Below, piece after piece: positions 4,153 to 25,796 of a stretch of DNA of 64,000 nucleotides. The DNA lies in contig CAXXKJ010000002.1 in NCBI GenBank assembly GCA_963675295.2, forward strand, positions 4,160,001 to 4,224,000, read 5' to 3'. This stretch comes from a bacterium (GTDB taxonomy: Bacteria > Electryoneota > Electryoneia > Electryoneales > Electryoneaceae). The notes under the pieces are model-generated. The model did not search any database. It was not told the origin of the DNA and saw only the letters and a list, made by a program, of their open reading frames with translations. The translations under genes and the position numbers were made by a program. Each line of letters opens with the position of its first letter. The stretch's first letter is position 1.

Positions 4153-4175
4153 ACGAAGGTTAACCGGAGACTGGT

Positions 4176-4869: not shown

Positions 4870-5835
4870 ATGGTGCTCACCCGTCATCCCGACAATCCGA
4901 TCATCACCCGTGAATCGATAACCTCCACCCTGCCTGAGCTGGACGATGTCAGCTCGGTGTTCAACCCCGGCGCGGTGCTGGTCGACGGCAAGGTGCACCT
5001 GCTGCTGCGGGTGCAGAACCGTGGTCGCGAAACGTACCTGCTGCACGCGGTCAGTGATGATGGCGTCCAGTTCGACATTGACCCGGAACCGGTGGTGTTC
5101 AAAGGCATCGAGGAGATTGCCTCACCGGTGTATCACATCTACGACCCACGCATCACCGAATTGGACGGCCGCTACTACATCATGCTCGCGCTGGACATCC
5201 ACAACGGCTGCCGGCTCGGGCTGGCAGTGACCGATGATTTCCGTGAGTACGAATTCCTCGGCATCAAATCGCACATCGACAACCGGAACGGTGTCCTTTT
5301 CCCGGAACGGATCAACGGGCAGGTGTTCCGGCTTGACCGTCCCAACCACCCGACGGCGGACGGTCCCGCCTCCGGCGAGATGATCTGGCTGGTCTCCAGC
5401 CGTGACTTTACCCGCTGGATTCCGCACAGCCCGGTGCTGCAGGGACGTCCTCACTACTGGGACGAGCGTATCGGCTCGGGCCCGCCGCCGGTGAAGACCC
5501 GTGACGGCTGGCTGTTGATTTATCACGGCGTCGCGACCCATTTCTCCAGGTCGAACATTTATCAGGCCGGCGTGGCGTTGCTGGATCTGGAGGATCCGTG
5601 CAAACTGATCGGACGCACCCGCTACAATATCCTTGAACCGCGTGAGATGTACGAGCTGATCGGCCAGGTGCCGAATGTCGTTTTCCCCAGCGGGATGGTG
5701 GTCTGGGACACGGATGATGACGGGTACGCCCTGCCGGACAGCCGGGTGTCGATCTACTACGGCGCGGCGGACACGGTGGTGGGCCTCGCCGAAACGACGA
5801 TTGGCGAGCTGGTAAACGCCTGCAATGAAGCATAG
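4870..5835 (+). CDS. GH130 beta-mannoside phosphorylase (likely GH130_2, Man-beta-1,4-GlcNAc type)
   Basis: VFNPGAV, YDPRIT, NRNGVLFPERING, PPVKT..GWLLIYHGV, VPNVVFPSG, YYGAADT; no signal peptide. Confidence 0.88.
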   Translation: MVLTRHPDNPIITRESITSTLPELDDVSSVFNPGAVLVDGKVHLLLRVQNRGRETYLLHAVSDDGVQFDIDPEPVVFKGIEEIASPVYHIYDPRITELDGRYYIMLALDIHNGCRLGLAVTDDFREYEFLGIKSHIDNRNGVLFPERINGQVFRLDRPNHPTADGPASGEMIWLVSSRDFTRWIPHSPVLQGRPHYWDERIGSGPPPVKTRDGWLLIYHGVATHFSRSNIYQAGVALLDLEDPCKLIGRTRYNILEPREMYELIGQVPNVVFPSGMVVWDTDDDGYALPDSRVSIYYGAADTVVGLAETTIGELVNACNEA

Positions 5836-5932
5836 CCCGGATCGGGTTGCTACCCTCTGCCCCGTAGCTTGCCCGTTTTGGCTCTGACAACGCGGCCTGA
5901 TGGATACGGACACCTTTGGAGAGGTTACTGAA

Positions 5933-7165
5933 ATGAAGCGAGATCTCACGGTTTCATGTACCCTGCTTCTGTTCTCCCTTCTCTTCGTGTGCAACGCATC
6001 CGCCGAGTTTCCCGTCCCGCAAATCCCGTTCGAATTCCGCACTGCAACCGCCCCATCCGTGATCGATTCGCTCACCATTGACGGCCGTGGCGACGAACAG
6101 ACATGGCAGACCATCGCCTGGTCTGAGCCGTTTGTTGATATCCGTGGCTTCGACTACCAGCCCGCCCCGCGCTATGAGACCCGGATCAAGATGGCGTGCG
6201 ATGAGGACTACTTCTACGTGCTGGCGTGGCTGGAAGAACCGCATCTCTGGGCGACCTACGACCGGCACGACATGGTCATCTTCCACGAGAACGATTTCGA
6301 GGTGTTCATCGACCCGGACGGCGACCTGCACAATTACCTCGAACTCGAGATCAACGCGCTGGGGACAACGTGGGACCTGATGCTCACTCGTCCGTACCGT
6401 GACGCCGGCAAGGCTATCGACTCGTGGGAGATTCCCGGCCTGAAGTCCGCGATCCATCTCGACGGCACGTTGAACGATCCCACCGACACCGACACGGGCT
6501 GGGGCGTGGAGCTGGCGATTCCGTGGGAGGTAATCACCGAAGTCGACACCCGGGAACGGGGTCCTCACCAGACACATTCTCCGACCATGCACGTCAACTT
6601 CAGCCGCGTGCAGTGGCAGCTCGACATCGTAGACGGACAGTATGTCAAACGCTCCAATCCAGATACCGGCGAACCGTTACCCGAAGACAACTGGGTGTGG
6701 TCGGCGCAGGGCCTGATCGCGATGCATTACCCGGAACGGTGGGGTCTGGTCACCATGCGTGGCGGGCATCGCCGGGCCAGCCCACCGGATATGGGTGAGC
6801 AGGCTGTTACCAGCATCGAAGATCCGCTCGCCGATCCGAGGTTACAGGGGAAGACACCAGGCGTGCAGACTGATCCCCTGCGCGAGATGGCGATGCTTTG
6901 CTACTACGCGCAGAAGCGGTATTACGAAGCGAACCAGCGAGTTTACGCGAGTAAGATCGTGTCGCTGGACCTGCCGGACGAATCGCCATATCCAACCATC
7001 GAATGGCCGCCGGATCTGGTCTGGATGCGTGGCGGGTACCAGATGATTGTGTACGATGCAGAGCGCCGCAGCGGCCTGCGGATCCGTGAGGATGGCCGTC
7101 TTGAGATGATGCCGTATCATTCGACCGACTACCTGAAACCATCCCAGGGAGCGCCAACACGATGA
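5933..7165 (+). CDS. Secreted carbohydrate-binding family 9-like protein
   Basis: Signal peptide; IDG..DE..W, ENDFEVFIDPDGD...YLELEINALGT.WDL, NFSRVQW, NWVWS.QG.IAMH.PERWG. Confidence 0.8.
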   Translation: MKRDLTVSCTLLLFSLLFVCNASAEFPVPQIPFEFRTATAPSVIDSLTIDGRGDEQTWQTIAWSEPFVDIRGFDYQPAPRYETRIKMACDEDYFYVLAWLEEPHLWATYDRHDMVIFHENDFEVFIDPDGDLHNYLELEINALGTTWDLMLTRPYRDAGKAIDSWEIPGLKSAIHLDGTLNDPTDTDTGWGVELAIPWEVITEVDTRERGPHQTHSPTMHVNFSRVQWQLDIVDGQYVKRSNPDTGEPLPEDNWVWSAQGLIAMHYPERWGLVTMRGGHRRASPPDMGEQAVTSIEDPLADPRLQGKTPGVQTDPLREMAMLCYYAQKRYYEANQRVYASKIVSLDLPDESPYPTIEWPPDLVWMRGGYQMIVYDAERRSGLRIREDGRLEMMPYHSTDYLKPSQGAPTR

Positions 7166-7190
7166 CCGCGACGAGCAACGGCGGCGGACG

Positions 7191-9224
7191 ATGAACCTTT
7201 CCCCTCTCGACTGGACAATTTTCGCGGGGATGCTGCTGTTCCTGATCCTCAGCATTGTCGCCAGCCGCACGTTGATGAAATCGGTCGCGGATTTTCTCGC
7301 GGCCGGACGTTCGGCGGGACGCTACCTGCTGGCGGTATCGTCCGGGATCGCGATGCTCGGCGCGATCACCATCGTCGGCAACCTCGAGATGAACCTGCTC
7401 GCCGGGTTTTCGATGACCTGGTGGGGAATGACGACGAATGTCGTGCTGCTGATCATGATGGTGTTCGGCTGGGTGACCTACCGCTTCCGTCAGACTCGCG
7501 CGCTGACCATCGCCCACTTCTTCGAACTGAGATACAGCCGTGCGTTTCGTGTCTACGCCGGCATCCTTGCGGCGGTCAGTGGACTGATCAACTTCGGCAT
7601 CTTCCCGTCGGTCGGGACACGGTTTTTCATGTACTTTTGCGGTCTGCCGGACGCTTTCCCGTTGTTCGGCCTGATGATTCCAACCTTCCCGGTGATCATG
7701 GCCGGATTGCTGTCGATCTCGTTGTACTTCGTCTTCGCCGGCGGCCAGATCGCGGTGATCATCACCGATTTCCTGCAGGGTGTGTTCATCAATGTCGTCT
7801 TTGTCGCGATGATCCTCTACCTGCTGGCGATTGTCGACTGGGGCTCGATCCAGCAGGCGTTGCAGGGCGCGCCGGAAAATGCGTCTCTGATCAACCCGTT
7901 CAAGACCGGTCACATCGAGGATTTCAACTTCTGGTATTTCCTGATCGGCATCTTCGGAGTGTTCTATGGGGCGATGAGCTGGCAGGGCACGCAGGGCTAC
8001 AACGCGTCCGCCCGGAACGCTCATGAAGCCAAGATGGCGGGCATGCTCAGCGCGTGGCGTGGCCTGCCGCAAACGTTGATGCTGATGATTGTCCCGATCA
8101 TCGCGTACACGGTGCTTCATCATGCCGATTACGCCGGGATCGCGGAGAGTGTCAACGCGGTCATCGGCGGCATCGAGGGCGACGCAATCCAGAGCCAGTT
8201 GAAGGTGCCGCTGGTGCTGAGCCACCTGCTGCCGGTGGGCCTGATGGGGGCGTTCGCGGCGGTGATGCTGGCGGCATTCATCAGCACGCACGACTCCTAC
8301 CTGCATTCGTGGGGCAGCATCATCGTGCAGGATGTAATCATGCCGTTCCGGAAAGAACCGTTCACACCGGAACAACACATCAAGGTCTTGCGCTGGACGA
8401 TCATCGGTGTCGCGGTATTTATCTTCTTCTTCAGCCTGTTGTTCAAGCAGAGCCAGTACATCTTCCTCTTCTTCGCGATCACCGGCGCGATCTTCGCCGG
8501 TGGGTCCGGTGCGGTGATCATCGGCGGGTTGTACTGGAGTCGCGGCACTACGGCGGCGGCGTGGGCGGCGATGACCATCGGGTCCGGTATCGCGGTCGCC
8601 GGAATCATCATCCATCAGCTGGTGGACGATTTCCCGATCAACGGGCAGATGTTCTGGGCAATCAGCATGGGGGCGGCGTCGGTGCTGTACGTGGTCGTCT
8701 CGCTGCTGACCAGCCGTGGCCGGAAACACAACATGGACAAGCTGCTGCACCGTGGCGAGTACGATGAGAAGGGTGAACTGCAGCATGTCGACATCGGCCA
8801 GAAAAAAATCTGGAAGTTGCTCGGCATGACCGAGGAATTCACCACCGGCGACAAGCTCATCTTCGTCATGAACTACGCGTGGACCTTCCTCTGGTTCGGC
8901 GCGTTCGTGGTCGGCACGGTCTACAACCTGTCGCACGACGTCAGCGACGAATCGTGGATGACGTTCTGGAAAATCTACGTGTACGTGCAGCTGGCGATGG
9001 CGTTGGTCGCGATGGTGTGGTTCACCATCGGCGGCGCGTTTGATCTGAAAAAGATGGTCCACGCGTTGCGCACGATGGTCCGGGACGATTCCGACAGCGG
9101 GTTTGTCGCGCGTGAGCTGGATGTTGCCGCCACCGAACTACCGCCGATCGCGAAACCTTCCCCGGTGAGCCCTACGCGCCCGCTGGCCGAACCTCCAAGT
9201 GATGAGACGAACGATGCCCGATAA
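7191..9224 (+). CDS. Sodium:solute symporter (SSS family)
   Basis: SVADFLAAGRSAG, FRQTRALTIAHFFELRYS, many TM helices. Confidence 0.9.
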   Translation: MNLSPLDWTIFAGMLLFLILSIVASRTLMKSVADFLAAGRSAGRYLLAVSSGIAMLGAITIVGNLEMNLLAGFSMTWWGMTTNVVLLIMMVFGWVTYRFRQTRALTIAHFFELRYSRAFRVYAGILAAVSGLINFGIFPSVGTRFFMYFCGLPDAFPLFGLMIPTFPVIMAGLLSISLYFVFAGGQIAVIITDFLQGVFINVVFVAMILYLLAIVDWGSIQQALQGAPENASLINPFKTGHIEDFNFWYFLIGIFGVFYGAMSWQGTQGYNASARNAHEAKMAGMLSAWRGLPQTLMLMIVPIIAYTVLHHADYAGIAESVNAVIGGIEGDAIQSQLKVPLVLSHLLPVGLMGAFAAVMLAAFISTHDSYLHSWGSIIVQDVIMPFRKEPFTPEQHIKVLRWTIIGVAVFIFFFSLLFKQSQYIFLFFAITGAIFAGGSGAVIIGGLYWSRGTTAAAWAAMTIGSGIAVAGIIIHQLVDDFPINGQMFWAISMGAASVLYVVVSLLTSRGRKHNMDKLLHRGEYDEKGELQHVDIGQKKIWKLLGMTEEFTTGDKLIFVMNYAWTFLWFGAFVVGTVYNLSHDVSDESWMTFWKIYVYVQLAMALVAMVWFTIGGAFDLKKMVHALRTMVRDDSDSGFVARELDVAATELPPIAKPSPVSPTRPLAEPPSDETNDAR

Positions 9225-12200
9225 ATTCCAGCAGTTGCACGTCACCCGGATCGAACGCTTCCGGGACCGGATCGGCAAGCTGATCATTCGCGACACACGC
9301 GAACTGACCGTCGATTGCGCGTTGACGGATGAAGAGCTGCCGTTCGAGAAACGCACCTCGCTCGACTACAAACCGTTGCGTGAGGGCGGCTCCTGGGGCA
9401 GCGAATACCAGATGGCGTGGCTGCACTTGAGCGGTACTGTTCCCTCGGAGTGGGCGGGCAAGACGGTTGTCGCCCAGCTGGATATCGGCGGCGAGGGGCT
9501 GGTCTATGACGACGCGGGCAAGATGCTGCAGAGCGTCAGCAGCGGGTCCATTTTCGATAAGGATTACGCCCGCGATATCGTGCTGCTGTTTGACGAAGCT
9601 CCCGATGGCGAAACGGTCGAGCTCTGGATTGACGCCTCCGCCAATGACCTGTTTGGCTTGATTACCGAGATGGACCCATCCGCGGAATCGCCGAAACGCT
9701 ACGGCGAGTGGAAAGCGGAGCTGAAACACGCCCGTCTCGCGTTGTTCGATACTGATCTCTGGCACCTGTGGATGGATTTGCGGATTGTGCTCGGCCTGAT
9801 CCGCACCTTGCCCGAGGATGGTGTCCGCCGTGCCCGGCTGATCCGTTGCGGCAGCGAGGCGGTGGATGTCTTCACCGAGAACCCGGCCAATGCATCCCTC
9901 TCTCGCGAAGTACTGGCACGCGAACTGAGCAAACCGGCCGCGGCGTCGGATTTGAACGCCGTCGCGATCGGACACGCGCACCTCGACACCGCGTGGCTGT
10001 GGCCGGTACGTGAGGGCAAACGCAAAGCCGAACGCACCTTCGCCAGCCAGTGCGACCTGATCGAACGCTATCCGGGCTATGTATTTGGCGCGTCTCAGCC
10101 GCATCAGTACGAGTATGTCCGTGACCGCAAGCCTGAATTGTGGGAACGGATCAAATGGCATGTGAACAACGGTGGCTGGGAACCGCTCGGCGGGATGTAC
10201 ACCGAGGCCGACTGCAACCTCGCGTCCGGGGAAGCGTTGGCGCGGCAACTGCTTTACGGCAAGCGCTTCTTCCTCGATGAGTTCGGTGTCGATGTCAGGC
10301 ACCTGTGGCTGCCGGACGTGTTCGGTTACTCCGCCGCGCTGCCGCAGTTGCTGAAGAAGGCCGGGATCGACTACTTCATCACGATCAAGATCTCGTGGAA
10401 CCAGTTCAACAAGTTCCCGCACCACACGTTTGTCTGGCGTGGCATCGACGGCAGCGAGGTACTCGCTCATTTCCCGCCCGAGGGCAACTACAACAGCATG
10501 CTGGACGCAGATTATCTAGTACCAGGCCGGGATGCATTCACCGAAAAAGACCGTGTCGATGTGTTCCTCAGCAGCTTCGGCGTCGGGGACGGCGGCGGCG
10601 GCCCGTTACCGGAAACCATCGAGTACGGCAAACGGCTGGCGAACACCGAGGGCGCGCCACGGGTGCGTTTTGGCCGCGTGGCGGACTTCTTCGACGAACT
10701 GGAAAGCTACCGTGACCAGCTCGACCGTTGGTCCGGAGAGCTGTACCTCGAGCTGCACCGCGGCACGTTGACCACGCAGGCGAAGGTCAAGCGCAGCAAC
10801 CGTAAGCTGGAATACCTGCTACAGGCGACGGAAATGCTGCACGCGTTTCTGCCGTTGGATGAGTACCCGGCGACTGAGCTGACGGCGGCGTGGAAAACAC
10901 TACTTATCAACCAGTTCCACGACATCCTGCCGGGGTCGAGTGTCACTGAAACGTATCGTGTCACGCTGGCGGAATATGACCGCATTGCACAAACCTGCGC
11001 CGAGCTGGAACAGGCAGCCGTAGAGAAGCTCGGCACGGCGGATGACAATGCCATCACCCTGTTCAATCCGCTCAGCAACGCGTTTTACGGCGATGTCGCA
11101 CTCCCGGATTCCTGTCCACGGAAGCAGCTGTTCAACCGGCAGGGTGATCCGTTACCGACGCAGCTCATCGGCGACCAGACCTGGATTTCGCTGGAACTCA
11201 AGCCGTCCTCGTTGGACACCATTCACAGCTCGGATCTGGAGATTCAACCCTCCGACCCGGTGGAGGGACGGATTCTCGAGAACGACCGGATCCGTTTCGA
11301 GTTCGACAAAGCCGGCCATCTGATCCACGCCATTGACGCGGACAGCGGCTGGGACGCCATCCCGGAAGGCGAACCCGGCAACCGCTTCCTGCTCTTCGCC
11401 GACCGTCCCAATGACTGGGACGCGTGGGACGTTGACCTGTTCTATGAGACCAACCTGCTTGGCGAAGCGGAGTGTGTTGGATATGAATCGCTGGGAGTGG
11501 GGTCGGTCGGGTCGGCGTTACGGTTCACATTCAAGAGGAACAAGTCGACGATCGTGCAGGATGTGATTCTCACGTGGTATTCCAACGAACTCCGCTTCAT
11601 TACGCGCGTTGACTGGCACGAAGATCACACGATGCTGCGTGTCAACTTCCCGGTCAATGTGCAGACGGACCGTGCCGCGTTCGACATTCAATACGGCCAC
11701 GTATTTCGTCCGACCCATCGTAACACGAGCTGGGATAAGGCCCGTTTCGAGAGCGCGGCGCACCGGTATGTCGATCTGTCCGAGCAGGATCGTGGCGTCG
11801 CGTTGCTCAACGATTGCAAGTACGGGCATGGTGTTCACGACAATGTCATCAGCCTCAATCTGCTGCGCTCGCCGACTTATCCTGACCCGGACGCCGACCG
11901 TGGGCAGCACGAATTCACCTTCTCACTGTACCCGCACGAGGGCGATCTGGTGCGTTCGGATGTCATCGAGCGTGCGGCAGCACTCAACCAGCCGCCGCTG
12001 GCCTGGCCGGGGATCAGGGTTGAATCGAAGGCGCTACCGTGTACGTTGACCGGTGATGGCTTGGCCCTGACCACAATCAAGCGCGGCGAGGACGGGGACG
12101 CGTGGATTGTACGGGTGGTGGAAACTCGCGGACGGCGTAGCAGCGGCACACTGCAGTGCGAGCTGCCCGGTGCGGAAATCGTTGAGTGTGATCTGATCGA

Positions 12201-12294
12201 GCGGCCGTTCGGTGATGAGGCGTCCGGTTCGATCGAGTTCGAGATGGGACCGTTCGAGATCCGGACCTTTGCGGTCCGAGTGAACCAAGTCTGA
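9214..12294 (+). CDS. GH38 alpha-mannosidase (cytoplasmic, Ams1/MngB-like)
   Basis: IGHAHLDTAWLWP, LWLPDVFGYS, GELYLELHRGT, NQFHDILPGS; no signal peptide. Confidence 0.95.
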   Translation: MPDKFQQLHVTRIERFRDRIGKLIIRDTRELTVDCALTDEELPFEKRTSLDYKPLREGGSWGSEYQMAWLHLSGTVPSEWAGKTVVAQLDIGGEGLVYDDAGKMLQSVSSGSIFDKDYARDIVLLFDEAPDGETVELWIDASANDLFGLITEMDPSAESPKRYGEWKAELKHARLALFDTDLWHLWMDLRIVLGLIRTLPEDGVRRARLIRCGSEAVDVFTENPANASLSREVLARELSKPAAASDLNAVAIGHAHLDTAWLWPVREGKRKAERTFASQCDLIERYPGYVFGASQPHQYEYVRDRKPELWERIKWHVNNGGWEPLGGMYTEADCNLASGEALARQLLYGKRFFLDEFGVDVRHLWLPDVFGYSAALPQLLKKAGIDYFITIKISWNQFNKFPHHTFVWRGIDGSEVLAHFPPEGNYNSMLDADYLVPGRDAFTEKDRVDVFLSSFGVGDGGGGPLPETIEYGKRLANTEGAPRVRFGRVADFFDELESYRDQLDRWSGELYLELHRGTLTTQAKVKRSNRKLEYLLQATEMLHAFLPLDEYPATELTAAWKTLLINQFHDILPGSSVTETYRVTLAEYDRIAQTCAELEQAAVEKLGTADDNAITLFNPLSNAFYGDVALPDSCPRKQLFNRQGDPLPTQLIGDQTWISLELKPSSLDTIHSSDLEIQPSDPVEGRILENDRIRFEFDKAGHLIHAIDADSGWDAIPEGEPGNRFLLFADRPNDWDAWDVDLFYETNLLGEAECVGYESLGVGSVGSALRFTFKRNKSTIVQDVILTWYSNELRFITRVDWHEDHTMLRVNFPVNVQTDRAAFDIQYGHVFRPTHRNTSWDKARFESAAHRYVDLSEQDRGVALLNDCKYGHGVHDNVISLNLLRSPTYPDPDADRGQHEFTFSLYPHEGDLVRSDVIERAAALNQPPLAWPGIRVESKALPCTLTGDGLALTTIKRGEDGDAWIVRVVETRGRRSSGTLQCELPGAEIVECDLIERPFGDEASGSIEFEMGPFEIRTFAVRVNQV

Positions 12295-12358
12295 GCGTAT
12301 GCCCCGACCGCAACAAAGCTGGGCGGGATCGGCCGTCGCTGGAAATCACCGGAGAATA

Positions 12359-12389
12359 ATCCCTGCTGGCAGAGCCATCAGGGGCACAT
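12359..12389. repeat. 31-bp intergenic hairpin repeat, copy 2
   Basis: ATCCCTGCTGGCAGAGCCATCAGGGGCACAT. Confidence 0.75.
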
Positions 12390-12418
12390 GATCGAGGTCA
12401 TGTCAGGGAGGAGATGAG

Positions 12419-13441
12419 ATGCGCTTCAGTATTGGTTTGACGTTGACCTGGCTGCTGGTTTTGACGGCGATTCCGTTGCTCGCCGGGGAACTGGTTGAAT
12501 CGACCACCGTCCCGGTGTTCGATCATCAGGTGCTTCATTTCAACCCTGATTCGACGGATCTGTACGTCGACGCACCGGTCGTCGCGCTGGACAACGGACG
12601 CGAGGCGGTATGTCCGGTGACCCTGCCCGACTACAACAAATCCACCCGGATCCTCGCGCACCTGACCCTCGATCCGATTCCGAAGGACATGCTGACGGTC
12701 CATGATCGCTGGGACCGCGCGGGGAACGTCCGTCTCACCAACCTCGACGGTCCGGATGTCGAGATCGCGCGCTTCATGACCAGTTACGGCGGCCACACCG
12801 AGCACACCCTCGATGTCACCCACCTCGCGCCGTTGCTCACCGGCGAACGGGACCTGGTCGCATTTGTCGATACCTGGGTCAGTCCCGGTTGGCAGGTGAC
12901 GTTCGATCTCGAATTCATGCCGGACACGTCCGCCTACGCACCCGACTGGGTGTTGCCGGTTTACTACACCACCGGGATGAACGCGCAGGACAATCCGGAC
13001 GGTGTCGACATTCCGGTTACCATTCCGCCGGGATTGGCACGGGTCGCGTTGGTCTACATCTCGACCGGTCACTGCACGGATGGCCGTGACGAGGACGAAT
13101 TCTACGCCAAGCCGAATGTGATCTCGGTGGATGGCATGGTGGTTGAACGGTTACACCCGTGGCGGGATGATTGCCGTGAGTACCGTGACCACAATCCGTA
13201 CACGGCGAAATGGACCGACGGCACGTGGTCCTCCGACTACAGCCGCAGCGGGTGGTGCCCGGGTGTGGAAGTTGACCCGACGGTCATCGACCTCACCGGC
13301 AATCTGTCGCCCGGCGAGCACACGATGCATATCGAGGTCGAGAACATGCGGCCCATTGACGAGGAAGAGCATTTCGGTTACTGGCGCATCTCCGCGCACC
13401 TGATCGGCTGGAAGGAGTACCCGCTGCTGTGGATCAACTGA
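12419..13441 (+). CDS. Peptide-N-glycosidase F-like protein
   Basis: Signal peptide; DRWDRAG, EIARFMTSYG, TGH...DEF, WRDDC...NP, SRSGWCPG motifs. Confidence 0.85.
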   Translation: MRFSIGLTLTWLLVLTAIPLLAGELVESTTVPVFDHQVLHFNPDSTDLYVDAPVVALDNGREAVCPVTLPDYNKSTRILAHLTLDPIPKDMLTVHDRWDRAGNVRLTNLDGPDVEIARFMTSYGGHTEHTLDVTHLAPLLTGERDLVAFVDTWVSPGWQVTFDLEFMPDTSAYAPDWVLPVYYTTGMNAQDNPDGVDIPVTIPPGLARVALVYISTGHCTDGRDEDEFYAKPNVISVDGMVVERLHPWRDDCREYRDHNPYTAKWTDGTWSSDYSRSGWCPGVEVDPTVIDLTGNLSPGEHTMHIEVENMRPIDEEEHFGYWRISAHLIGWKEYPLLWIN

Positions 13442-14937: not shown

Positions 14938-15241
14938 ACCCGCTCGCCGGACCCTTCGGACGAACCGGGTCTAGCACAGACAAACCGTGGCCCCGCTCAA
15001 GAGAACGGGGGTACGTGCTTCACAAGCAAGACGCCAGCCGGTACCGCACCTCTACCACGCTTCGGTTTTAAACTGTCTCACCTGGCACGGCGGGCAGCAG
15101 GCCAGGATTCTTTGGCACAGTCTACTCCCCGAGCGAAGCTCTTGCGAATGGAATTAGGCAAGCCGAATCTTGTATCCAATGATAATCGAAAACTTACATT
15201 CCATTCTGAATTCCAACCTTCACCCGTGGAAGGAACGTGAG

Positions 15242-17863: not shown

Positions 17864-17874
17864 ACCGGAATCAG

Positions 17875-20874
17875 ATGCAGCCCCGGATCACGATCCGCCT
17901 GATGCTGGCGGTGTTGCTGGCGATTTTTGCGGGAACCGTTGCCTTCAGCGCGGACCCCGGCGACCATGAGATCAAGGACCGGGATGCGTTGAAACGTCTC
18001 GGCGCGGTGGTCGAGGATCGCGGGATCGGTCTGCTCGACAAGGGCGAGCTGGCCAACCTTATCACCAACATCGGGATCATCAGCGATTTCCATTTCGGCA
18101 CTCCGGCGCTGCACTGGCCGCGCAATGGAGAGGACGTGCAACACTACGGCTTCGGTGTCGGTCTGGTCGTGCTGGCGGACGGGCAGGTGGTCGCCTCGGT
18201 GCACGATCCCGATTCCCCGTTGCTCGATTACGGCTGGGAAGCCGAGCAGGGATCGCTCGGCGGCTTGTTCAACGATGTTCGTACGGACGACAACACGGCG
18301 GCCGACGAGGTGACGCCGTTCCTCGCGTTCTCCGACCGTCCGGCGACGTGGCCTGTGGTCGGCGGCGAACCCACCTGGCCCGGCCCGTTCCGGCGTGACC
18401 TCGCCAACCCCACTCAGGAGGTGGAAGGCGAATTCACCTCCGACCGTGACATTTACTCCGTCTTTCGTGACAAGCGAGATGTCGGCCTGCGAGTCGAACA
18501 GATCGCCTACTCGTACAGCCGCCCCTACGCGACTGACCTGATTTTCGTCCGCTACGTGCTGCACAACGACAGCGGCGCGGATTTGGATGAGGTCTACGCA
18601 GGTTTCTTCGCGGATCTCAAGGCGGATTTCTACGCCGACGACCGTATCGGCACGTGGTCGCTTGTCGATGGCGAGAAGTATCCGTCGTTCTTCTTCAAGC
18701 AGGACCTGAACGGCGTCCCGCAACGTGACGACTCATCCCTGTTCGAACAGTGGGTTGGACCGGTCGGCTGGATCGGCGCGGGGATTGTCGCGACGCCGGA
18801 CGACATGGGCGTGACCAGCTTCCACTACTACCACGACGACGAAAGTCCGGTCGAGGACGAAGATTTCAGCGCGATTCTGCGCAATGATCCGTCAGGCACG
18901 AACAACCCGGACTGGTATTTCCACGGCGACAATCCACAGTATGACGACGTCTCGGTGCAGGCCGAGGTGGACAAGGATGCGTTCCCCGGGTCGGAGATTA
19001 CGTTTACCTCAGGCGTGGGACCGTTCTCGCTTCCGGCGGGTGGCAGCGAGGAATTCGCGCTGGCATTCGTGATCGGCGCCGATTCAACGGAGCTGTACGA
19101 CAATGCCGCCACTGCCTACCAGATGGCGCGCGAGATGCACTACCAGGGGTCCGGCCCACCGGCGACTCCGACCCTGCGTGCGACACCGGGCGACGGCGAG
19201 GTTCTACTGAGCTGGGACAATGTCGCGGAAGGCAGCGTGGACGCATTCACCGGGCTGCGTGATTTCGAGGGCTACCGACTCTACAAGTCCACTGACGGCG
19301 GCCTGACCTGGGGCGATGTGGTCACCAACTGGTTCGGCGAACCATCCGGCTACGTGCCCATCTTCCAGTGCGATCTGGTCGACAGCTTCACCGGCCCGGA
19401 CCCTGCGTACGGTCCGGATTTCCCCAACGCGAATGTCTGGCTCGGCGACGACACCGGCCTCAAGCACAGCTACCTCGATACGGATGTCACCAACGGCGTC
19501 GAAACGTGGTACACGATCACCGCTTACGATCGTGGCTTGTACGATCCGGATGATCCTCTCGCCGCCGAACCGAGCTACGAAACCTCGTTCGGCAATTCCG
19601 CCAGCGACGCGAACACCGTTGCCGTCACTCCCGGCACCCGCGCCGGGGACTGGCGTGCGGGCACGGCGGGCGGGCTGATCGAACTGAACGGCGCGGTCAG
19701 TGACGGCTACATCGACATCGAAATTATCGACAGCGACGAGCTGACCGGCTACACCTACAACGTCACCTTCAATGATGTCGGCGACACGTTGTCCCTCGAG
19801 CCGGACACGGTTATCGTCGAGGAAACGTCACTGAATCTCGAGTGCCTGACTACCGGCACGAATGTGTTCACCGACATGCACAGCGGTAAGGAATTCGTCT
19901 ACTTCAACGTGCCACTGAGCATGGCACAGCCGGCGGTGGACGGTTTCCGTCTTATTGTGCAGGATGTGGACGGGACCGGCGTGCGGGACCTGGGTTGGAC
20001 CACGGTGAACGACGAAGAGAGCACCTTTACCTGGTGGACGGCGAACAACTACCCGTCGAATCCGTCCAGTTACGAGGAAGTGGTCGCGGGGGCGATGGAC
20101 TGGCGTGTCAGCATCACCGACTCACCTGTCGAATTTCGGACGACAACTCTTGGGTTTACCGAACAATTCCATGACACTTCGTTCGCAGCACCGCTTAAAC
20201 TGGAAGTGTCCGACAATGCTGCGGATGGTGTGTGGACCGATGTAACCGACTACGGCGCGTTTTCCGATCTCGTGTTTGCGTTCGGGCCGATTCCATCGCT
20301 GAGTCCGGTTGGTTGGGATCTCGAGCCGGGCGGGGCAGCGTGGAACCCGTCCACCCCACCGGACGGCACCCCGTTGTTCCCGGACATTCTGTGGTTGCGT
20401 GACGATGACGACGACACGTCCGGTGCGGAGGTGTGGCTGAAGACGAACAACGGGCCGCCGGATGCAATTCCGCCGAGCGTTGGCGACGTCTTCACGATTA
20501 TCACGTACAAGCCGTTCCGGCGGGGCCTGGTCTATGAATTCACCACCGAGGCTCCCTCCACGTCCGCAACTGTCGATCTCGGCGCGATTCGTGTGGTTCC
20601 GAACCCGTATATCGTGGATAGCGCCATGCGTGGCTCGGATGGCGAGGGGCAGGTGATGTTCACCAACCTGCCTTCCCGTTGCGACATCACGATTTACACC
20701 GTTGCCGGGCGCAAGGTGGCGGAGCTGACGCATGACAGCAGCGGCACGGAAGGATTTGCGTACTGGGATTTGCGCAACGAACACGGCCAGGACATTGCGT
20801 ACGGGGTGTACGTGTATGTCGTATCCACCCCGGACGGTGACAAGCATACAGGAAAATTGATGGTGATCCGGTAG
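17875..20874 (+). CDS. Large secreted acidic protein with FN3-like region and T9SS-type C-terminal domain
   Basis: Signal peptide; PPATPTL...GDGEV.LSWD, DFEGYRLYKS; C-term IRVVPNPY...FTNLP..C.ITIYTVAG...WDLRN..GQDIAYGVY...KLMVIR. Confidence 0.75.
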   Translation: MQPRITIRLMLAVLLAIFAGTVAFSADPGDHEIKDRDALKRLGAVVEDRGIGLLDKGELANLITNIGIISDFHFGTPALHWPRNGEDVQHYGFGVGLVVLADGQVVASVHDPDSPLLDYGWEAEQGSLGGLFNDVRTDDNTAADEVTPFLAFSDRPATWPVVGGEPTWPGPFRRDLANPTQEVEGEFTSDRDIYSVFRDKRDVGLRVEQIAYSYSRPYATDLIFVRYVLHNDSGADLDEVYAGFFADLKADFYADDRIGTWSLVDGEKYPSFFFKQDLNGVPQRDDSSLFEQWVGPVGWIGAGIVATPDDMGVTSFHYYHDDESPVEDEDFSAILRNDPSGTNNPDWYFHGDNPQYDDVSVQAEVDKDAFPGSEITFTSGVGPFSLPAGGSEEFALAFVIGADSTELYDNAATAYQMAREMHYQGSGPPATPTLRATPGDGEVLLSWDNVAEGSVDAFTGLRDFEGYRLYKSTDGGLTWGDVVTNWFGEPSGYVPIFQCDLVDSFTGPDPAYGPDFPNANVWLGDDTGLKHSYLDTDVTNGVETWYTITAYDRGLYDPDDPLAAEPSYETSFGNSASDANTVAVTPGTRAGDWRAGTAGGLIELNGAVSDGYIDIEIIDSDELTGYTYNVTFNDVGDTLSLEPDTVIVEETSLNLECLTTGTNVFTDMHSGKEFVYFNVPLSMAQPAVDGFRLIVQDVDGTGVRDLGWTTVNDEESTFTWWTANNYPSNPSSYEEVVAGAMDWRVSITDSPVEFRTTTLGFTEQFHDTSFAAPLKLEVSDNAADGVWTDVTDYGAFSDLVFAFGPIPSLSPVGWDLEPGGAAWNPSTPPDGTPLFPDILWLRDDDDDTSGAEVWLKTNNGPPDAIPPSVGDVFTIITYKPFRRGLVYEFTTEAPSTSATVDLGAIRVVPNPYIVDSAMRGSDGEGQVMFTNLPSRCDITIYTVAGRKVAELTHDSSGTEGFAYWDLRNEHGQDIAYGVYVYVVSTPDGDKHTGKLMVIR

Positions 20875-20975
20875 TTGAGTGGAGCGAACATCGAGGGACA
20901 CGATCCGCTTCACCATCGCAACATTTTCTACAGGATCAACAGCCCCGGAGGGGGGCGCATAACGAGGAGAATCGC

Positions 20976-21959
20976 ATGCGTATTGCTCTGACTTTCTTCC
21001 TGCTGGTACTGGTCTCCGGGATCAGTTCGGCGGATGTAATTTTCGAGGAACACTTCACCGACGGCAGCATCCAGGACGGCTGGTTCTCTCCGTGGCCGGA
21101 AGGCCAGGATATTGTGATCACTCCGGACCCGACCGCGCCGAGCGGCGATGGTTGGACCGGCAGTGTCGCCGGCGACCAGGCTTCCACCGCGCTCAACGGC
21201 ACCATGGACCTGGAAGATTACACGGTTGAATCCTGGATCTACACGATTGTCTCGAACGACGTCATGTTCCCGGTTTATAACGCCGTCGCGGCGCGTTGGG
21301 ACACGACCAACGGCAATTCGTACTACTATTTTACCACCATGTTCGGCTCGACCAAGAAAATGCGGCTGCGTCGCTATCCGGGCTCCGGCTTTGCCGCGGA
21401 AACCTTCATTGAATGGTCTGCCGCGGAGATTCCCGGCGGCGCCCCGACTGAGAGCAGCTGGCACAAGATGACGCTGCGTGTTTCCGGCGACGAGATCTGG
21501 TGCTACTGGGATGATCAATTGATGCCCGGCTGCCCGTACACCCCGTCAGCGGAATTCCGCCAGTACTCCGGGTTCTTCGGCATCTACGAGTTCTACATGG
21601 GCGACCAGGTTACCGAACCGGAAACGCGGTTTGACGATTTCATGGTCACCGATGAAAACAACGACGTCGACGAGATCACGATCGCACCGGTACCGAACTC
21701 ATCCATCGTCAGCTCGCTGTACCCGAACCCGTTCAACGCCAGCACCACGGTCACCTTCACCAATTCGGTTCCGGGTGATGTGACGCTGGCGGTGTGGGAC
21801 GTGCTCGGTCGACAGATGGCGACCCTTCAGCACGGGTTCCTCTCCCCCGGCGATTTCCGGGTGACGTGGGACGCGGCCGGCTATTCGACCGGCAACTACT
21901 TCATTACCGTGCAGCTCGGCGACAAGCAGGTGGTGCATCGCGCCGTGCTGACCAAGTAG
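20976..21959 (+). CDS. Secreted beta-sandwich (lectin-like) protein with T9SS type A CTD
   Basis: Signal peptide; C-term YPNPFNAST...WDVLGR...STGNYFI. Confidence 0.75.
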   Translation: MRIALTFFLLVLVSGISSADVIFEEHFTDGSIQDGWFSPWPEGQDIVITPDPTAPSGDGWTGSVAGDQASTALNGTMDLEDYTVESWIYTIVSNDVMFPVYNAVAARWDTTNGNSYYYFTTMFGSTKKMRLRRYPGSGFAAETFIEWSAAEIPGGAPTESSWHKMTLRVSGDEIWCYWDDQLMPGCPYTPSAEFRQYSGFFGIYEFYMGDQVTEPETRFDDFMVTDENNDVDEITIAPVPNSSIVSSLYPNPFNASTTVTFTNSVPGDVTLAVWDVLGRQMATLQHGFLSPGDFRVTWDAAGYSTGNYFITVQLGDKQVVHRAVLTK

Positions 21960-22105
21960 CGCTTACTCAGGTTGTGACCAACTTTCGGGATCAGGCGAGG
22001 CGAGTCGTTTCGCCTGATTCCGGCGGTGTTGATCATGCGGGCGTGCGGAAGGTTGGTGGTTAGCACCGTCGCACACCCGCAGCAGCCCACAATGCGAGGT
22101 CTCGC

Positions 22106-24772
22106 ATGAGTCGTTGGAAACCGAATCACGGATGGGCGATCGCCAGCGTTCTGCTGGCGTTGTTGCTGCTTCCGGCAACGTTATTCGCCGCACCGGAGAT
22201 CGTGGTGCCGGGCAGCGTCGTCTTTCAGCTGTCGTACGCTGACGCCCTGCCGCAGGACGCGTCCGAGGGTGCCCTGTTGCGCACAGGTGACGCCGCGTTT
22301 GACGAGTGGTTGGGCACGATTGACGCCAGCAGCATGAAGAACGAATTCGGCGACCTGATGCCGGACATGCGTGTCGTGCGGTATGACGCAGACCGGCCGG
22401 GCGGGCAGATTCTGGACGAGCTGCGGGATTTCCCGTTTGTCGTGCAGGCGGACGCCAACTACGCATTCCCGTGGTCTGAGCTCACGCGAACCCCGTCTGA
22501 CCCGGAAGCGCCGGGCCAGTGGCACCATTACGCGATCAATTCGTATCGCGGCTGGGCGTTGGCGCAGGGGTCGGACGATATCATCATCGGCATCGTTGAC
22601 AGCGGTGTCGACTATGACCATCCCGATCTCGAGAGCAGCATCTGGGTTAATCCCGGTGAGGATCTGAACAACGACGGTATCTGGGACGCTTCCGACGTTG
22701 ACGGTCTCGACAACGACGACAACGGCTACATCGACGACGGCATCGGCTGGGATTTTGTCACCGAGACCGAAGTCTTTCCCGGTGACGATCCGGGTCCGCC
22801 AGACAACGATCCCAACGATTTCGACGGACACGGCACCCACTGTTCCGGCGATGCTGCCGCGACCACGAACAACGGCATCGGTGTTGCCGCTCCCGGTTGG
22901 GGCTGCAAGATCGGCGCGTTGCGGGCGGGCTGGACGACGACAGGCGGCCTCGGGGTTGTCGGTCTGCTTGAGGCGACCAATGCCATCACCTATGCCATGA
23001 ACCACGGTTTCGATGTCATCTCGATGAGCTTTGGTGGACCGGGCGGCGATCCGTTCTACTTCCAGCAGGCGATGCAGATGGCGTATGACGCTGGCCTGAT
23101 CCTCGTCGCGGCAGCTGGCAATGAAAGCTCGAATGTGCCGCAGTATCCCGCCGCCGAGGACATGGTGATCGCCGTCGCCGCGACCGACCAGAACGATGAG
23201 CTGGCCGATTTCTCCAGCTGGGGCGACTGGGTCACCTTGGCCGCGCCCGGTGTCGCGATTTACAGTACCACGAATGCGGGCGGCTACGGCCAGCAGGGCG
23301 GTACCAGCATGGCGTGCCCGATTGTTGCCGGTTCCATCGCCAACCTGATGAGCATCGCGCCGCCGGGCTGGACTAACGACGACATCATCTTCCGGCTCAC
23401 CTCCACTGCGCGTGAAATTCCGGTTCCGGGCACCGGCGCCGGTATTGTCGACCTCGGCGCATTGCTTGACGTGTACGTCTCGGTCGACTCGGTCTGGGTG
23501 TACGATGGCGTCGTGCCGCACATCATTCACGGGCAGGAAGGCACCTTCGGCATGCGCTGGCAGAAGCATGACCAGAGCGCGCAGGAAGTGTCGCTGAAGC
23601 TGACCTGCGACGAACCCCGGGTCACGCTTGGTGCTGATTCGCTGTGGATCGGGATCGTGACACAGGGCCAGTCTGGAAACTTCGAGGTGCCGGTAACTGT
23701 CGCGCCCGGTGACGAGGATGTCGAGACGATTGACGTCGTCGCCCGCTTCCGTGGCTCGGATTTCTTCAACAACGATTTCGACTTCGAGCAGATCATCCCG
23801 CTACGTGTCGGCCAGGCACCGGTGCTGCTGATCGACGATGACCAGGGCGGCGCGGGCCGTATTGACACGTGGTATCTCAGTGCGATGGAGCAGGTCGGGG
23901 TGGAAACCGAAGCGATCAAACGGTCGGATATCTCGGTGCTGGCCGATTTTGTCGCGGGCTACGAGGCAATCATTTACGCGTCCGGCAGCCGCACCAGCAA
24001 CCATCTCACCGGGGATGACCTGGCCGTCTTCAGCGACTACCTGAACGACGGCGGCAAGATGCTGTTCTCCGGACAGAACATCGCTGAAGATCTGGCGGCG
24101 ACCAACCCGGACGTGCTCGACACCCTGTTCCACATCGAGCTGACTGAGCCCAACGCGAACCAGCTTGTGGTGCGTGGCATCGAAGGCCATCCGATCACCG
24201 ATGGCTTCTACCTCTTCCTCGCCGGTGAGGGGGGCGCGTGGAACCAGGACAACATCGACGTGCTCGCCGCTCAGGACGGCGCGGAACCGTTGTTCGTATT
24301 CAGCGCGGACCAGCCTGAGCGGTTGGCGGGTGTGCGAGTACAGGAAGGAATGCGCGACCTGGTTTTCTGCTCGTTCGGTCTGGAAGCAATCAACGATGAC
24401 TGGGTGAACGCGTCCACCCGTGCCGAGGTGCTCGACCGGATCTTCGTCGCCTGGGGCTTTGAGACTGGTGTCGCCGAACCGGGCAGGGACGGGTCAGGGC
24501 TGATCGCGGATGAGTTCGCCGTCTCCCGCCTGTGGCCGAATCCGACGAACGGGTTCGTGCAAAGTGTGATCACGTTGCCGTCACCGGGTCAGGTACGAAT
24601 CCGTGTGTTTGACCTGCTCGGACGGGAAGTGGATGCGTACGACTTCGCCGGTTCCGCCGGTCATAACCGTTTTTCTTGGCAGATGCCGGCGGGATTGAGT
24701 TCGGGGATGTATTTCCTCCGAGCCGAGCATCAGGCGGATGCACGGCAACAGCGTTTCCTGTATGTCAAGTGA
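22106..24772 (+). CDS. S8 subtilisin-like serine protease with T9SS type A CTD
   Basis: Catalytic triad IVDSGV / GHGTHCSG / GTSMACP; AAAGN; WPNPTN...SSGMYF CTD. Confidence 0.93.
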   Translation: MSRWKPNHGWAIASVLLALLLLPATLFAAPEIVVPGSVVFQLSYADALPQDASEGALLRTGDAAFDEWLGTIDASSMKNEFGDLMPDMRVVRYDADRPGGQILDELRDFPFVVQADANYAFPWSELTRTPSDPEAPGQWHHYAINSYRGWALAQGSDDIIIGIVDSGVDYDHPDLESSIWVNPGEDLNNDGIWDASDVDGLDNDDNGYIDDGIGWDFVTETEVFPGDDPGPPDNDPNDFDGHGTHCSGDAAATTNNGIGVAAPGWGCKIGALRAGWTTTGGLGVVGLLEATNAITYAMNHGFDVISMSFGGPGGDPFYFQQAMQMAYDAGLILVAAAGNESSNVPQYPAAEDMVIAVAATDQNDELADFSSWGDWVTLAAPGVAIYSTTNAGGYGQQGGTSMACPIVAGSIANLMSIAPPGWTNDDIIFRLTSTAREIPVPGTGAGIVDLGALLDVYVSVDSVWVYDGVVPHIIHGQEGTFGMRWQKHDQSAQEVSLKLTCDEPRVTLGADSLWIGIVTQGQSGNFEVPVTVAPGDEDVETIDVVARFRGSDFFNNDFDFEQIIPLRVGQAPVLLIDDDQGGAGRIDTWYLSAMEQVGVETEAIKRSDISVLADFVAGYEAIIYASGSRTSNHLTGDDLAVFSDYLNDGGKMLFSGQNIAEDLAATNPDVLDTLFHIELTEPNANQLVVRGIEGHPITDGFYLFLAGEGGAWNQDNIDVLAAQDGAEPLFVFSADQPERLAGVRVQEGMRDLVFCSFGLEAINDDWVNASTRAEVLDRIFVAWGFETGVAEPGRDGSGLIADEFAVSRLWPNPTNGFVQSVITLPSPGQVRIRVFDLLGREVDAYDFAGSAGHNRFSWQMPAGLSSGMYFLRAEHQADARQQRFLYVK

Positions 24773-24782
24773 GGGAGGACGC

Positions 24783-25796
24783 ATGAACAGGTCGCTGCAA
24801 CGGGTAGGCTTGACGCTGCTGCTGGTGGCGGTGCTGCTGCCCGGACACGCTGCTGGGTTTGACAAGCCCGGCACCACCGCCGCCACTTTTCTGCAGATCA
24901 TTCCCGGCAGTCGTGTTCCGGCGATGGGTGGCGCGGGAGTCGCATTGGCCGGTGGCGCGGAAATGCTCGCGATCAACCCGGCCGCGATCGCCTCGGACCG
25001 GTTCTCGGCGTCGTTCGCTTACAACGACTGGTTCGCCGGGCTAGAGCATCAAACATTGGCCGTCACCGCTCCAGTCCGGCCCAATCTGCGCGTCGGGATT
25101 CACGCGATCTCGTTCGGCGGGGACGAATTCGAGCAGACGACGCTCGAGATGCAAAACGGGAACGGCGTCATGGTCGACTACGGCGATCTGGCGGTGGGTG
25201 CATCCGCGATCATGCAATTGACTGACCGTTTCACCGTCGGCATCACCGGGAAATACATCCGCCAGGACCTGTTCCATACCTCCGCGCAGACCGGCGCGCT
25301 TGACGTCGGCACGCTGCTGCACACCACGCTGGACGGTTTTTCCATCGGCATGGCGATGACCAACCTCGGCGGCGACATGCAGCTCACCGGGCAGGATCTG
25401 ATCGCCGACGCGGAGTCGGACAATGCCGCCGAAACCCGGCTGCACACGTCGAAATGGCCGTTGCCGCTGTCCTTCCAGTTCGGCTTCGGCTGGCGGCTGG
25501 TGGGCGAGCAGGACGCGTTCTGGCGGGACGATCTGCACGAGTTCACCCTCGCGGTCGACAGCCGGCATTTGAACGAAGGGATTACCACCGTGCACGCCGG
25601 CGCGGAATACGGGCTGTACGACATCGTCTTCCTGCGCGGCGGCCGCAGCCTGAACCACGACACCGAGGAGTGGTCGTTCGGCGGTGGCGTGCGGGTCAAC
25701 CTGCGCAGCCTGACCGTGAACGCCGACTTCGCCTACGCCGACATGGGCGACCTGAACTCAGTAAAGCGGGTGACGTTACGGATTTGCGGACGCTGA
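24783..25796 (+). CDS. PorV/PorQ-family outer-membrane beta-barrel
   Basis: GTTAATFLQI.PGSR..AMGGA, INPAA, DVG, G.EY...VFLRGG. Confidence 0.8.
   Translation: MNRSLQRVGLTLLLVAVLLPGHAAGFDKPGTTAATFLQIIPGSRVPAMGGAGVALAGGAEMLAINPAAIASDRFSASFAYNDWFAGLEHQTLAVTAPVRPNLRVGIHAISFGGDEFEQTTLEMQNGNGVMVDYGDLAVGASAIMQLTDRFTVGITGKYIRQDLFHTSAQTGALDVGTLLHTTLDGFSIGMAMTNLGGDMQLTGQDLIADAESDNAAETRLHTSKWPLPLSFQFGFGWRLVGEQDAFWRDDLHEFTLAVDSRHLNEGITTVHAGAEYGLYDIVFLRGGRSLNHDTEEWSFGGGVRVNLRSLTVNADFAYADMGDLNSVKRVTLRICGR

Follow-up and report, generated by a model that had tools for sequence, protein, structure and literature searches.

Do eleven adjacent genes on one strand of a bacterial chromosome form a single pathway for foraging on glycoproteins, or do two separate systems lie side by side? 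The question is raised by positions 4870 to 25796 of a 64,000-nucleotide stretch of contig CAXXKJ010000002.1 (assembly GCA_963675295.2, Electryoneaceae), the whole of which is referred to here as the window. An earlier note, made from the sequence alone, had read these genes as one SusD-less locus that combines a protease, a TonB-dependent receptor, a PNGase F-like amidase and a full set of enzymes for the N-glycan core. We consider it probable (roughly 60%) that the genes are instead two units that have been inherited separately, the first of which acts on N-glycans. This first unit is a glycosidase operon (module A, 4870-14937) and the second is a receptor/protease cassette (module B, 15242-25796). 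The modules came together only recently and are not passed on as one unit.

Gene families were assigned by applying Pfam and NCBIfam models to the open reading frames of the window. These calls bear out the eleven plus-strand genes of the earlier note and the families given to them, and are listed below with protein lengths in amino acids (aa) and with T9SS denoting the type IX secretion system.

4870-5835, +, GH130 beta-mannoside phosphorylase, predicted cytoplasmic (module A; PF04041, E 6.2e-52)
5933-7165, +, CBM9-like protein, predicted exported (module A; PF06452, 31.8 bits, cut-off 23.4)
7191-9224, +, divergent SSS symporter (module A; PF00474, E 4.6e-20)
9199-12294, +, Ams1-type GH38 alpha-mannosidase, predicted cytoplasmic (module A; GH38 N, middle, C and C2 domains and Ams1-like_1st)
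12419-13441, +, predicted exported PNGase F-like amidase (module A; PF09113, E 4.5e-32; PF09112, E 3.8e-11)
13429-14937, +, GH20 beta-N-acetylhexosaminidase, predicted cytoplasmic (module A; PF00728, E 6.6e-113)
14938-15241, no strand, intergenic gap of 304 bp between the modules
15242-17863, +, TonB-dependent receptor with an N-terminal carboxypeptidase-regulatory-like domain (module B; PF00593, PF13620, PF07715)
17875-20874, +, 999-aa all-beta protein of no Pfam family, predicted exported (module B; in the place that SusD takes in a polysaccharide utilization locus, PUL)
20976-21959, +, 327-aa T9SS cargo (module B; Por_Secre_tail at residues 248-323)
22106-24772, +, S8 subtilase with a T9SS sorting domain (module B; PF00082, E 3.3e-47; Por_Secre_tail at residues 809-879)
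24783-25796, +, PorV/PorQ-family outer-membrane barrel (module B; NF033709, 155.7 bits, cut-off 90)

Signal peptides were judged by a hydropathy heuristic (12-mer Kyte-Doolittle) rather than by SignalP. A signal-like N-terminal stretch (2.4-3.0) was found on the CBM9-like protein, the PNGase, the receptor, the 999-aa and 327-aa proteins, the S8 protease and the PorV-like barrel, and none was found by hydropathy on GH130 (1.51), GH38 (0.01) or GH20 (1.08). Within the limits of this heuristic, the pattern agrees with the one that had been claimed. The same note had spoken of proteins with C-terminal sorting domains; this holds for the 327-aa protein and the S8 protease, both of which carry T9SS sorting domains, and the 999-aa protein and the PorV/PorQ-type barrel are no ordinary cargo.

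Comparisons were made within a sample of 79 species genomes of the phylum, including the present one (G000; 4.8 Mb, 92.8% complete). Other G numbers denote genomes of the same phylum, and L numbers denote loci cut from the genomes of relatives or from metagenome contigs. Neighborhoods of the PNGase gene (~19 kb per side) were taken from 12 other genomes and compared by tblastn. Metagenome contigs were scanned with an alignment of PNGase orthologues, yielding 68 loci, 23 of which are shorter than 4 kb and are too short to show neighbors. Module B neighborhoods were compared at 11 loci from other genomes. Absence was called at a threshold of E <= 1e-10 for the PNGase and E <= 1e-20 for the 999-aa protein.

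The earlier note had held beforehand that its single locus would be refuted if the two halves were not co-conserved, and they are not. Among the seven genomes that have both modules, the two are adjacent in two, G000 and its closest relative, G027 (~90% identical). Operon and cassette lie on different contigs in G028, a genome of the same genus in which glycosyltransferase and ATP-grasp genes on the opposite strand come after the operon, and the two modules are ~1 Mb apart in the complete genome G032. At least six genomes have the cassette and no PNGase (G031, G018, G025, G022, G039 and G078), and G037 has the operon and nothing that matches the 999-aa protein. The boundary between the modules, at the 304-bp gap, is set by breaks of synteny in G028, G026 and G032. 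Coupling of the two is not required: each is found in genomes that lack the other, and they are not inherited together. Consensus scans were uninformative on promoters: over 4000-23900, 3 promoter-like matches (5.5 expected) and 10 terminator-like matches (14.3 expected) were found, none of them in the gap, and a sigma-54 consensus gave 3 matches (4.9 expected), none in the locus.

Against this background, it is rather unlikely that all eleven genes form one glycoprotein-foraging pipeline, in which material cut by the S8 protease would pass through the receptor to a periplasmic PNGase and then through the SSS symporter to the cytoplasmic enzymes. Such a pipeline would account for the adjacency and shared strand of the genes in G000 and G027 and for the presence of both modules somewhere in seven genomes. 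It would also suit the S8 gene of the same architecture that lies divergently upstream of the operon in G034, the further S8 gene beside a PNGase gene on metagenome contig L112, and the action of periplasmic PNGases on imported proteolytic glycopeptides that is proposed for Bacteroides in the excerpted text of PMC9522356. The breaks in linkage described above speak against it, as does the gap between the halves. The S8 protein of G034 is only 30% identical to that of the window and is therefore a paralogue.

The absence of SusD does not distinguish the locus either. No SusD is encoded there, as the earlier note had said, and PF07980 and PF14322 have 0 matches in the entire genome (a B. thetaiotaomicron control was positive). 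The trait belongs to the phylum rather than to the locus, since PF07980 matches only 1 of the 79 genomes, a 76%-complete metagenome-assembled genome with 4% contamination.

The reading of two units gives module A a likely function in N-glycan salvage, and its PNGase F-like protein is the first line of evidence. Both beta-sandwich domains of PNGase F are present (PF09113, 111.2 bits, cut-off 25; PF09112, 43.5 bits, cut-off 22.4), and the PDB matches are 3ks7, a putative PNGase F (E 2.9e-35), PNGF-II 4r4x (E 7.3e-34) and PNGase F 1pnf (E 1.8e-11). The catalytic residue is retained: in the alignment, D99 corresponds to Asp60 of 1pnf, the catalytic residue of PNGase F, within a shared W-D-R motif. 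D151-T-W153 aligns with Glu118-Thr-Trp120 of 1pnf. E227, which lies in a D-E-F motif, and R276, which precedes WCPG, also occur in 3ks7 and PNGF-II in the printed alignments, and may correspond to Glu206 and Arg248 of PNGase F. D99, R100, D151, W153, E227, R276 and WCPG are invariant in 13 PNGase orthologues, and 13 of 13 have a signal peptide and no sorting domain. The window protein itself has neither a sorting domain nor a lipobox. According to the excerpted text of Crouch et al. 2022 (PMC9522356), the residue at the Glu118 position is Asp in the group-1 PNGases of Bacteroides, which have PNGase F-like activity, and an active member of this group, BF0811, removes N-glycans of the complex and the high-mannose kind and not plant N-glycans. 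From the type I signal peptides of these enzymes, the same excerpts propose periplasmic action on imported proteolytic glycopeptides; the design that the earlier note had inferred for this step is thus not new. Glu or Asp at the Glu118 position marks type I and Gly marks type II (core-fucose tolerance), and the window protein has Asp, as do the group-1 enzymes. Judged by its sequence, the PNGase-like protein is expected to be type I-like, with a preference for high-mannose or complex glycans that lack core alpha-1,3-fucose. It is the only recognised N-glycan-releasing enzyme of the genome, since no GH18 was found there and tblastn gave only one GH20 match.

The three enzymes without a signal peptide, GH130, GH38 and GH20, fit the N-glycan core, as the earlier note had held, and the glycosidase half is a conserved operon. 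The nearest solved relative of GH38 is a yeast Ams1 fusion, 7vqo (E 2.4e-154), followed by 7ufs and 6lz1, and the bacterial SpGH38 (2wyh) matches at only E 8.9e-15. The protein shows five domains, with Ams1-like_1st at 26.5 bits, just below the cut-off of 27. Ams1-type enzymes carry out a broad trimming of free oligosaccharides. GH20 is an ordinary hexosaminidase with its best solved match in 6q63 (E 1.5e-116). Among solved structures, GH130 is closest to TM1225 (1vkd, E 5.6e-54), with Uhgb_MP next (4udg, E 4.4e-45), and the order by bit score is TM1225 (186), Uhgb_MP (157), the beta-1,2-oligomannan phosphorylase 9fj8 (152) and RaMP2 5ayd (146). The NCBIfam equivalogs for beta-1,2-mannobiose phosphorylase score 188 and 169 bits on it, against cut-offs of 550 and 450. 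Hallmarks of GH130 phosphorylases are phosphate-binding basic residues and a Tyr adjoining the catalytic Asp (Cuskin 2015, PMC4599007, excerpted text). The window GH130 shows them in fold and motifs, and its YDPR, NRNGVLFP, RP and YHGV motifs are identical to those of TM1225 and Uhgb_MP in the printed alignments. The assignment of individual hallmark residues to these motifs is our assumption, and TM1225 is presumably a mannooligosaccharide phosphorylase.

A second GH38 is encoded nearby. This exported protein of 1360 aa (CHB_HEX_C, Fn3_assoc, PA14) lies 11 kb upstream of the operon, behind a sugar-type ABC transporter (binding protein, ATPase, permease). The transporter and GH38 genes are found at C2:4142000-4160500 of G000 (coordinates 4890-16335 of that locus), 4-15 kb upstream of where the window begins, and a divergent, PAS-rich hybrid histidine kinase adjoins the GH38 gene. 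The exported GH38 could be a periplasmic trimmer of alpha-mannose, and the kinase could be a sensor of the same substrate.

The composition of the operon is conserved among relatives. PNGase orthologues (E < 1e-100) are present in 13 of the 79 genomes, G000 counted, and the operon occurs whole or in part in seven other genomes of the family. The whole order GH130-CBM9-SSS-GH38-PNGase-GH20 is kept in G027, G028 (with a second GH38-like gene inserted), G032 and G037. G036 has CBM9-SSS-GH38-PNGase-GH20, G034 has SSS-GH38-PNGase with GH130-CBM9 elsewhere on the contig, and the operon of G026 is cut by a contig end. PNGase-GH20 alone is found in G041 and G042. At least one operon partner accompanies the PNGase in 7 of the 68 metagenome loci, as GH130-CBM9-SSS-PNGase (L076, L107), CBM9-SSS-GH38-PNGase-GH20 (L096), SSS-PNGase-GH20 (L092) or PNGase-GH20 (L074, L083, L086), and single metagenome PNGases lie beside an OPT oligopeptide transporter (L075) and an S8 protease (L112). 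The CBM9-like gene is present in 19 of the 79 genomes and touches GH130 and/or SSS in 13 of them, both in 9. The SSS gene is the best conserved of the operon (62-96% identity).

Two further observations concern the surroundings of the operon in relatives. In G032, the immediate neighbors of GH130 (L048:8895-16024) encode DUF4838, a GH3 that carries a PA14 insert and an alpha-L-fucosidase of family GH29, a decoration-removing set of the kind expected for complex or plant N-glycans. Downstream of the operon in G034 (L036:5902-12390) and G036 (L040:6315-12515), which represent two genera, are tandem pairs of genes for ~1020-1050-aa proteins with FlgD-Ig-like tails, which are unrelated to the 999-aa protein by tblastn.

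The PNGase of G063, G064 and G065 has no operon partners and stands beside a ~1930-aa multi-domain glycosyltransferase and a T9SS cargo (Pfam scan of G063 and G065). This arrangement, in another family of the phylum (f7; G063, G065 and metagenome locus L105), with a glycosyltransferase/methyltransferase as neighbor, is what might suggest that the operon recycles the organism's own N-linked glycoconjugates. We regard such recycling as highly improbable: no STT3/PglB oligosaccharyltransferase was found in the genome, with archaeal controls positive, and the enzyme set fits a eukaryote-type Man-GlcNAc2 core. The ~1930-aa protein contains GT2, GT4/GT1 and several methyltransferase domains (L041/L042 of G063, L045 of G065, L105), and the T9SS cargo that also adjoins the PNGase at these loci has no assigned function.

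The two remaining proteins of module A would serve transport. The CBM9-like protein has more than 6700 homologues (45-60% identity) in several phyla of the Fibrobacteres-Chlorobi-Bacteroidetes (FCB) group, named only 'carbohydrate-binding family 9-like'; a protein atlas search, which returned its own family only, shows the family in Planctomycetota as well. A sequence search of the PDB gave marginal CBM9 matches only. In its AlphaFold2 (AF2) model (predicted local distance difference test, pLDDT, 87.6), residues 34-277 match BACUNI_03838 (4jpq, Z 20.8) and CBM9 with cellobiose (1i82, Z 18.9, root-mean-square deviation 2.4, 179 residues aligned), and residues 301-394, at the C-terminus, form a small domain that is pilin-like (Z 9.1). 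Structure comparison revealed no enzyme fold in the model. The protein probably binds glycans in the periplasm. Binding of reducing ends is a property of CBM9 modules, and PNGase-released glycans end in a free reducing N-acetylglucosamine (GlcNAc); on this analogy, binding of the reducing end beside the symporter is a reasonable predicted role. The SSS protein scores below the TIGR00813 cut-off (93 vs 184 bits) and has no solved relative by sequence in the PDB at E<=1e-3. With all three exo-enzymes placed in the cytoplasm, its cargo has to be a tri- or tetrasaccharide or larger, unless other periplasmic enzymes have trimmed the glycan beforehand.

We propose the following order of steps for module A. 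The PNGase F-type amidase would free whole N-glycans in the periplasm from glycopeptides that have passed the outer membrane, and the CBM9-like protein would bind the new reducing end. The SSS symporter would then carry the glycan into the cytoplasm, possibly after trimming by the exported GH38 encoded 11 kb upstream. There, the Ams1-type GH38 would take off the alpha-mannoses, GH130 would phosphorolyse the beta-mannose to mannose 1-phosphate (Man-1-P), and GH20 would cleave the chitobiose.

Several points weigh against this scheme or against the separation of the two modules. Protein localisation rests on the hydropathy heuristic, and we know of no SSS transporter that carries oligosaccharides. 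NagA (TIGR00221), NagB/Glucosamine_iso (PF01182) and mannose-6-phosphate isomerase of type I or II (PF01050, PF20511) were not found in the 92.8%-complete genome, which leaves the fate of GlcNAc and mannose as carbon sources unexplained. The genome has two ROK kinases, and the products may feed cell-envelope precursors (Man-1-P leading, presumably, to GDP-mannose), or unrecognised enzymes may exist. Most metagenome PNGase homologues have no CAZyme partners beside them: GH38, GH130, GH20 and SSF were found by Pfam in 0 of 13 long metagenome PNGase loci (98 open reading frames). The nearest solved GH130 is TM1225, and 9fj8 scores close to Uhgb_MP. The adjacency of the modules in two genomes could reflect functional recruitment. 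Finally, GH130-CBM9-SSS occurs without any PNGase in G043, G044, G010 and G011. Since this triad also stands without the PNGase, it is the oldest unit of the operon by our reading, with GH38 and PNGase-GH20 added later, and without a PNGase it may serve beta-mannosides in general.

The PNGase-free triads, together with the closeness of GH130 to TM1225, raise the further alternative that module A is an operon for uptake and phosphorolysis of beta-mannosides (mannan or mannobiose), its PNGase being employed elsewhere, for example in unblocking proteases during peptide foraging. PNGase homologues beside the OPT transporter and the S8 protease, without glycosidases, would suit such a use. We find this improbable, given that genes for GH38, PNGase and GH20 have been inserted into this operon in four complete cases and on L096, that Pfam finds no mannanase or epimerase in the operon, and that the PNGase-GH20 pairing recurs alone. 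Moreover, the two other GH130 paralogues of the genome lie near a different cassette, at C2:3.38-3.40 Mb.

What, then, is module B? Its receptor falls below the SusC/RagA cut-off (TIGR04056, 90.4 vs 368.25 bits), with SusC likeness limited to the N-terminal carboxypeptidase-regulatory-like and plug parts. The 999-aa protein has no PDB match by sequence, and the end of the PorZ model finds a match in its C-terminal ~110 aa (E 3.3e-9). The AF2 model is all-beta (pLDDT 85.9), and Foldseek with the whole model returned only matches of low template modelling (TM) score, to Fn3 arrays, PorZ (5m11) and the GH94/GH116 N-domains. Its family counts 4961 cluster representatives with E<=1e-3, and 338 with E <= 1e-30. 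Pfam at E<=1 gave nothing usable for the two halves of this protein, for the head of the 327-aa protein or for the middle of the S8 protease, ~350 aa of which have no assigned domain. The barrel is neither a canonical PorV nor a canonical PorQ, because both equivalog scores (PorQ 54.7 bits, PorV 46.6 bits) lie below the cut-offs.

Full-length orthologues of the 999-aa protein (53-92% identity) are present in G027, G028, G039, G031, G036, G034, G032, G078, G018, G025 and G022, split or truncated ones in G026, G038, G021 and G023, and relatives at 38% identity in G019 and G020. In all 11 loci, the receptor gene lies immediately upstream of that for the 999-aa orthologue, and in 7 a PorV-like barrel adjoins. 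A full-length S8 orthologue (38-70% identity) adjoins the pair in five loci (G028, G031, G018, G025 and G022), and a homologue of the 327-aa head lies beside the cassette in four (G028, G031, G022 and G025). Module A genes were found at none of the 11. Other neighbors of the cassette are housekeeping genes (RecO, Mur ligase, TatD) or T9SS cargo with CARDB and LVIVD. The present genome itself contains five triads of receptor, 999-aa paralogue and PorV-like barrel and one rearranged copy; five of its seven PorV-like barrel paralogues come after a receptor/999-aa-like pair. One triad (C2:3381259-3401880) lies ~8-13 kb from the two other GH130 paralogues and may be a beta-mannan version of the cassette.

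Module B would thus be one of at least five paralogous SusD-independent uptake cassettes, each made of a receptor, a large PorZ-tailed surface protein and a PorV/PorQ-like barrel. PorZ is held at the cell surface by PorQ, and by analogy the barrel of the cassette may anchor the 999-aa protein beside the receptor, as we consider probable for the large surface protein of this module. As this copy has its own T9SS-exported S8 protease and small cargo protein, module B is most likely, again by analogy, a system for harvesting protein or peptides that functions like RagAB with gingipains. In this genus it may supply module A with glycopeptides. A stronger version of that coupling, in which the receptor, capped by the 999-aa protein on a private PorQ-like barrel (by way of an uncleaved PorZ-like tail), would import glycopeptides made by the S8 protease, and the PNGase, the CBM9-like protein and the SSS symporter would follow as a complete SusD-free route, appears doubtful to us. 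If it were true, this would be the first SSS transporter shown to import oligosaccharides of N-glycan size and the first to work with a binding protein.

Each step proposed for module A has an analogue elsewhere. In eukaryotes, the cytosolic free-oligosaccharide pathway consists of Png1, ENGase and Man2C1/Ams1, and like module A it places an Ams1-type GH38 after a PNGase step. Unlike module A, it uses a PNGase of transglutaminase type rather than of PNGase F fold and serves quality control rather than nutrition; the present PNGase would be periplasmic. BT1033 and Uhgb_MP are reportedly GH130_2 Man-beta-1,4-GlcNAc phosphorylases. The window GH130 resembles them in its predicted cytoplasmic location, the Tyr beside the catalytic Asp, the basic motifs, and a gene beside a sugar transporter within an N-glycan set, and differs in having TM1225 as its nearest solved relative.

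The closest comparison is with the N-glycan PULs of Bacteroides (B. fragilis BF0811 and B. massiliensis B035DRAFT_03341), in which, in the excerpts of PMC9522356, an enzyme of the PNGase F family that bears a type I signal peptide is proposed to be periplasmic, as here, and has Asp at the Glu118 position in group 1. The neighbors of those PNGases include, in the same excerpts, GH130, GH29 and GH3, the last two of which are also present in G032. In contrast to these PULs, the window has no SusC/SusD, GH92 or GH18, its alpha-mannosidase, phosphorylase and hexosaminidase would all be cytoplasmic, and the inner-membrane step would fall to an SSS symporter with a CBM9-like partner. In the EndoD/ABC-NG system of S. 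pneumoniae, as excerpted from Robb et al. 2017 (PMC5215778), the glycan is set free before it reaches the cytoplasm, as proposed here, then taken up as an oligosaccharide and broken down within by mannosidases of GH38 type and a hexosaminidase, and import likewise precedes cytoplasmic digestion in the GH38/GH125 operon of B. longum (excerpts of the review PMC10154615). As these excerpts have it, the Gram-positive systems are those of monoderms and employ endo-beta-N-acetylglucosaminidases and ABC transporters with solute-binding proteins, whereas PNGase, SSS and GH130 are encoded here in a diderm. Module B resembles RagAB and the gingipains of P. gingivalis (10.1101/755678, excerpted text), a TonB-dependent importer that takes up peptides made by T9SS-exported proteases. 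It differs in that there is no RagB/SusD lid, its place being taken by a 999-aa PorZ-tailed protein and a PorV/PorQ-like barrel, and in that the protease is an S8 rather than a cysteine protease.

Nearly all that is known of N-glycan use by bacteria comes from Bacteroides of the gut and from a small number of Gram-positive pathogens and commensals. The operon would represent another wiring, in bacteria of sediment type that are uncultured and belong to a small phylum free of SusD: a PNGase in place of an endo-glycosidase, an SSS symporter in place of SusCD with an MFS or ABC transporter, a phosphorylase for the beta-mannose, and exo-enzymes that are all cytoplasmic. In searches of the open-access literature, we found no description of the operon, of a role for the CBM9-like family or of SusD-free receptor cassettes of this kind. 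Two large uncharacterised families, the CBM9-like proteins and the 999-aa receptor partners, gain testable roles, and the division into two units guards against the spread of a false annotation as a single pipeline. In practical terms, new PNGases and a candidate glycan importer would be gained; conceptually the gain is modest, every step having a known analogue.

Other features of the window lie on either side of the locus. Just upstream of GH130, at 2944-4751, are genes for a Na+/H+ exchanger and then a PTS EIIA(Ntr)-like protein, a pair that is kept in G027. In G037, an EIIA-like gene is also upstream of a second SSS and GH130. This may be a regulatory link. At 53146-59427, a FecR-like anti-sigma protein is followed by two more TonB-dependent receptors with carboxypeptidase-regulatory-like N-domains, neither of which has a 999-aa-type partner after it. 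Between these and the locus, beginning directly after the PorV-like gene, GC content falls from the 0.60-0.62 of the locus to 0.42-0.49 (26000-52200). No tRNA was found beside this stretch by a tRNA search. Its genes include an rve transposase (35439-36479), a DUF5906 primase-like protein (46514-48628), an HTH/MqsA-like protein, a phage-type integrase (51064-52119) and a PD-(D/E)XK nuclease, and the whole looks like an integrated mobile element.

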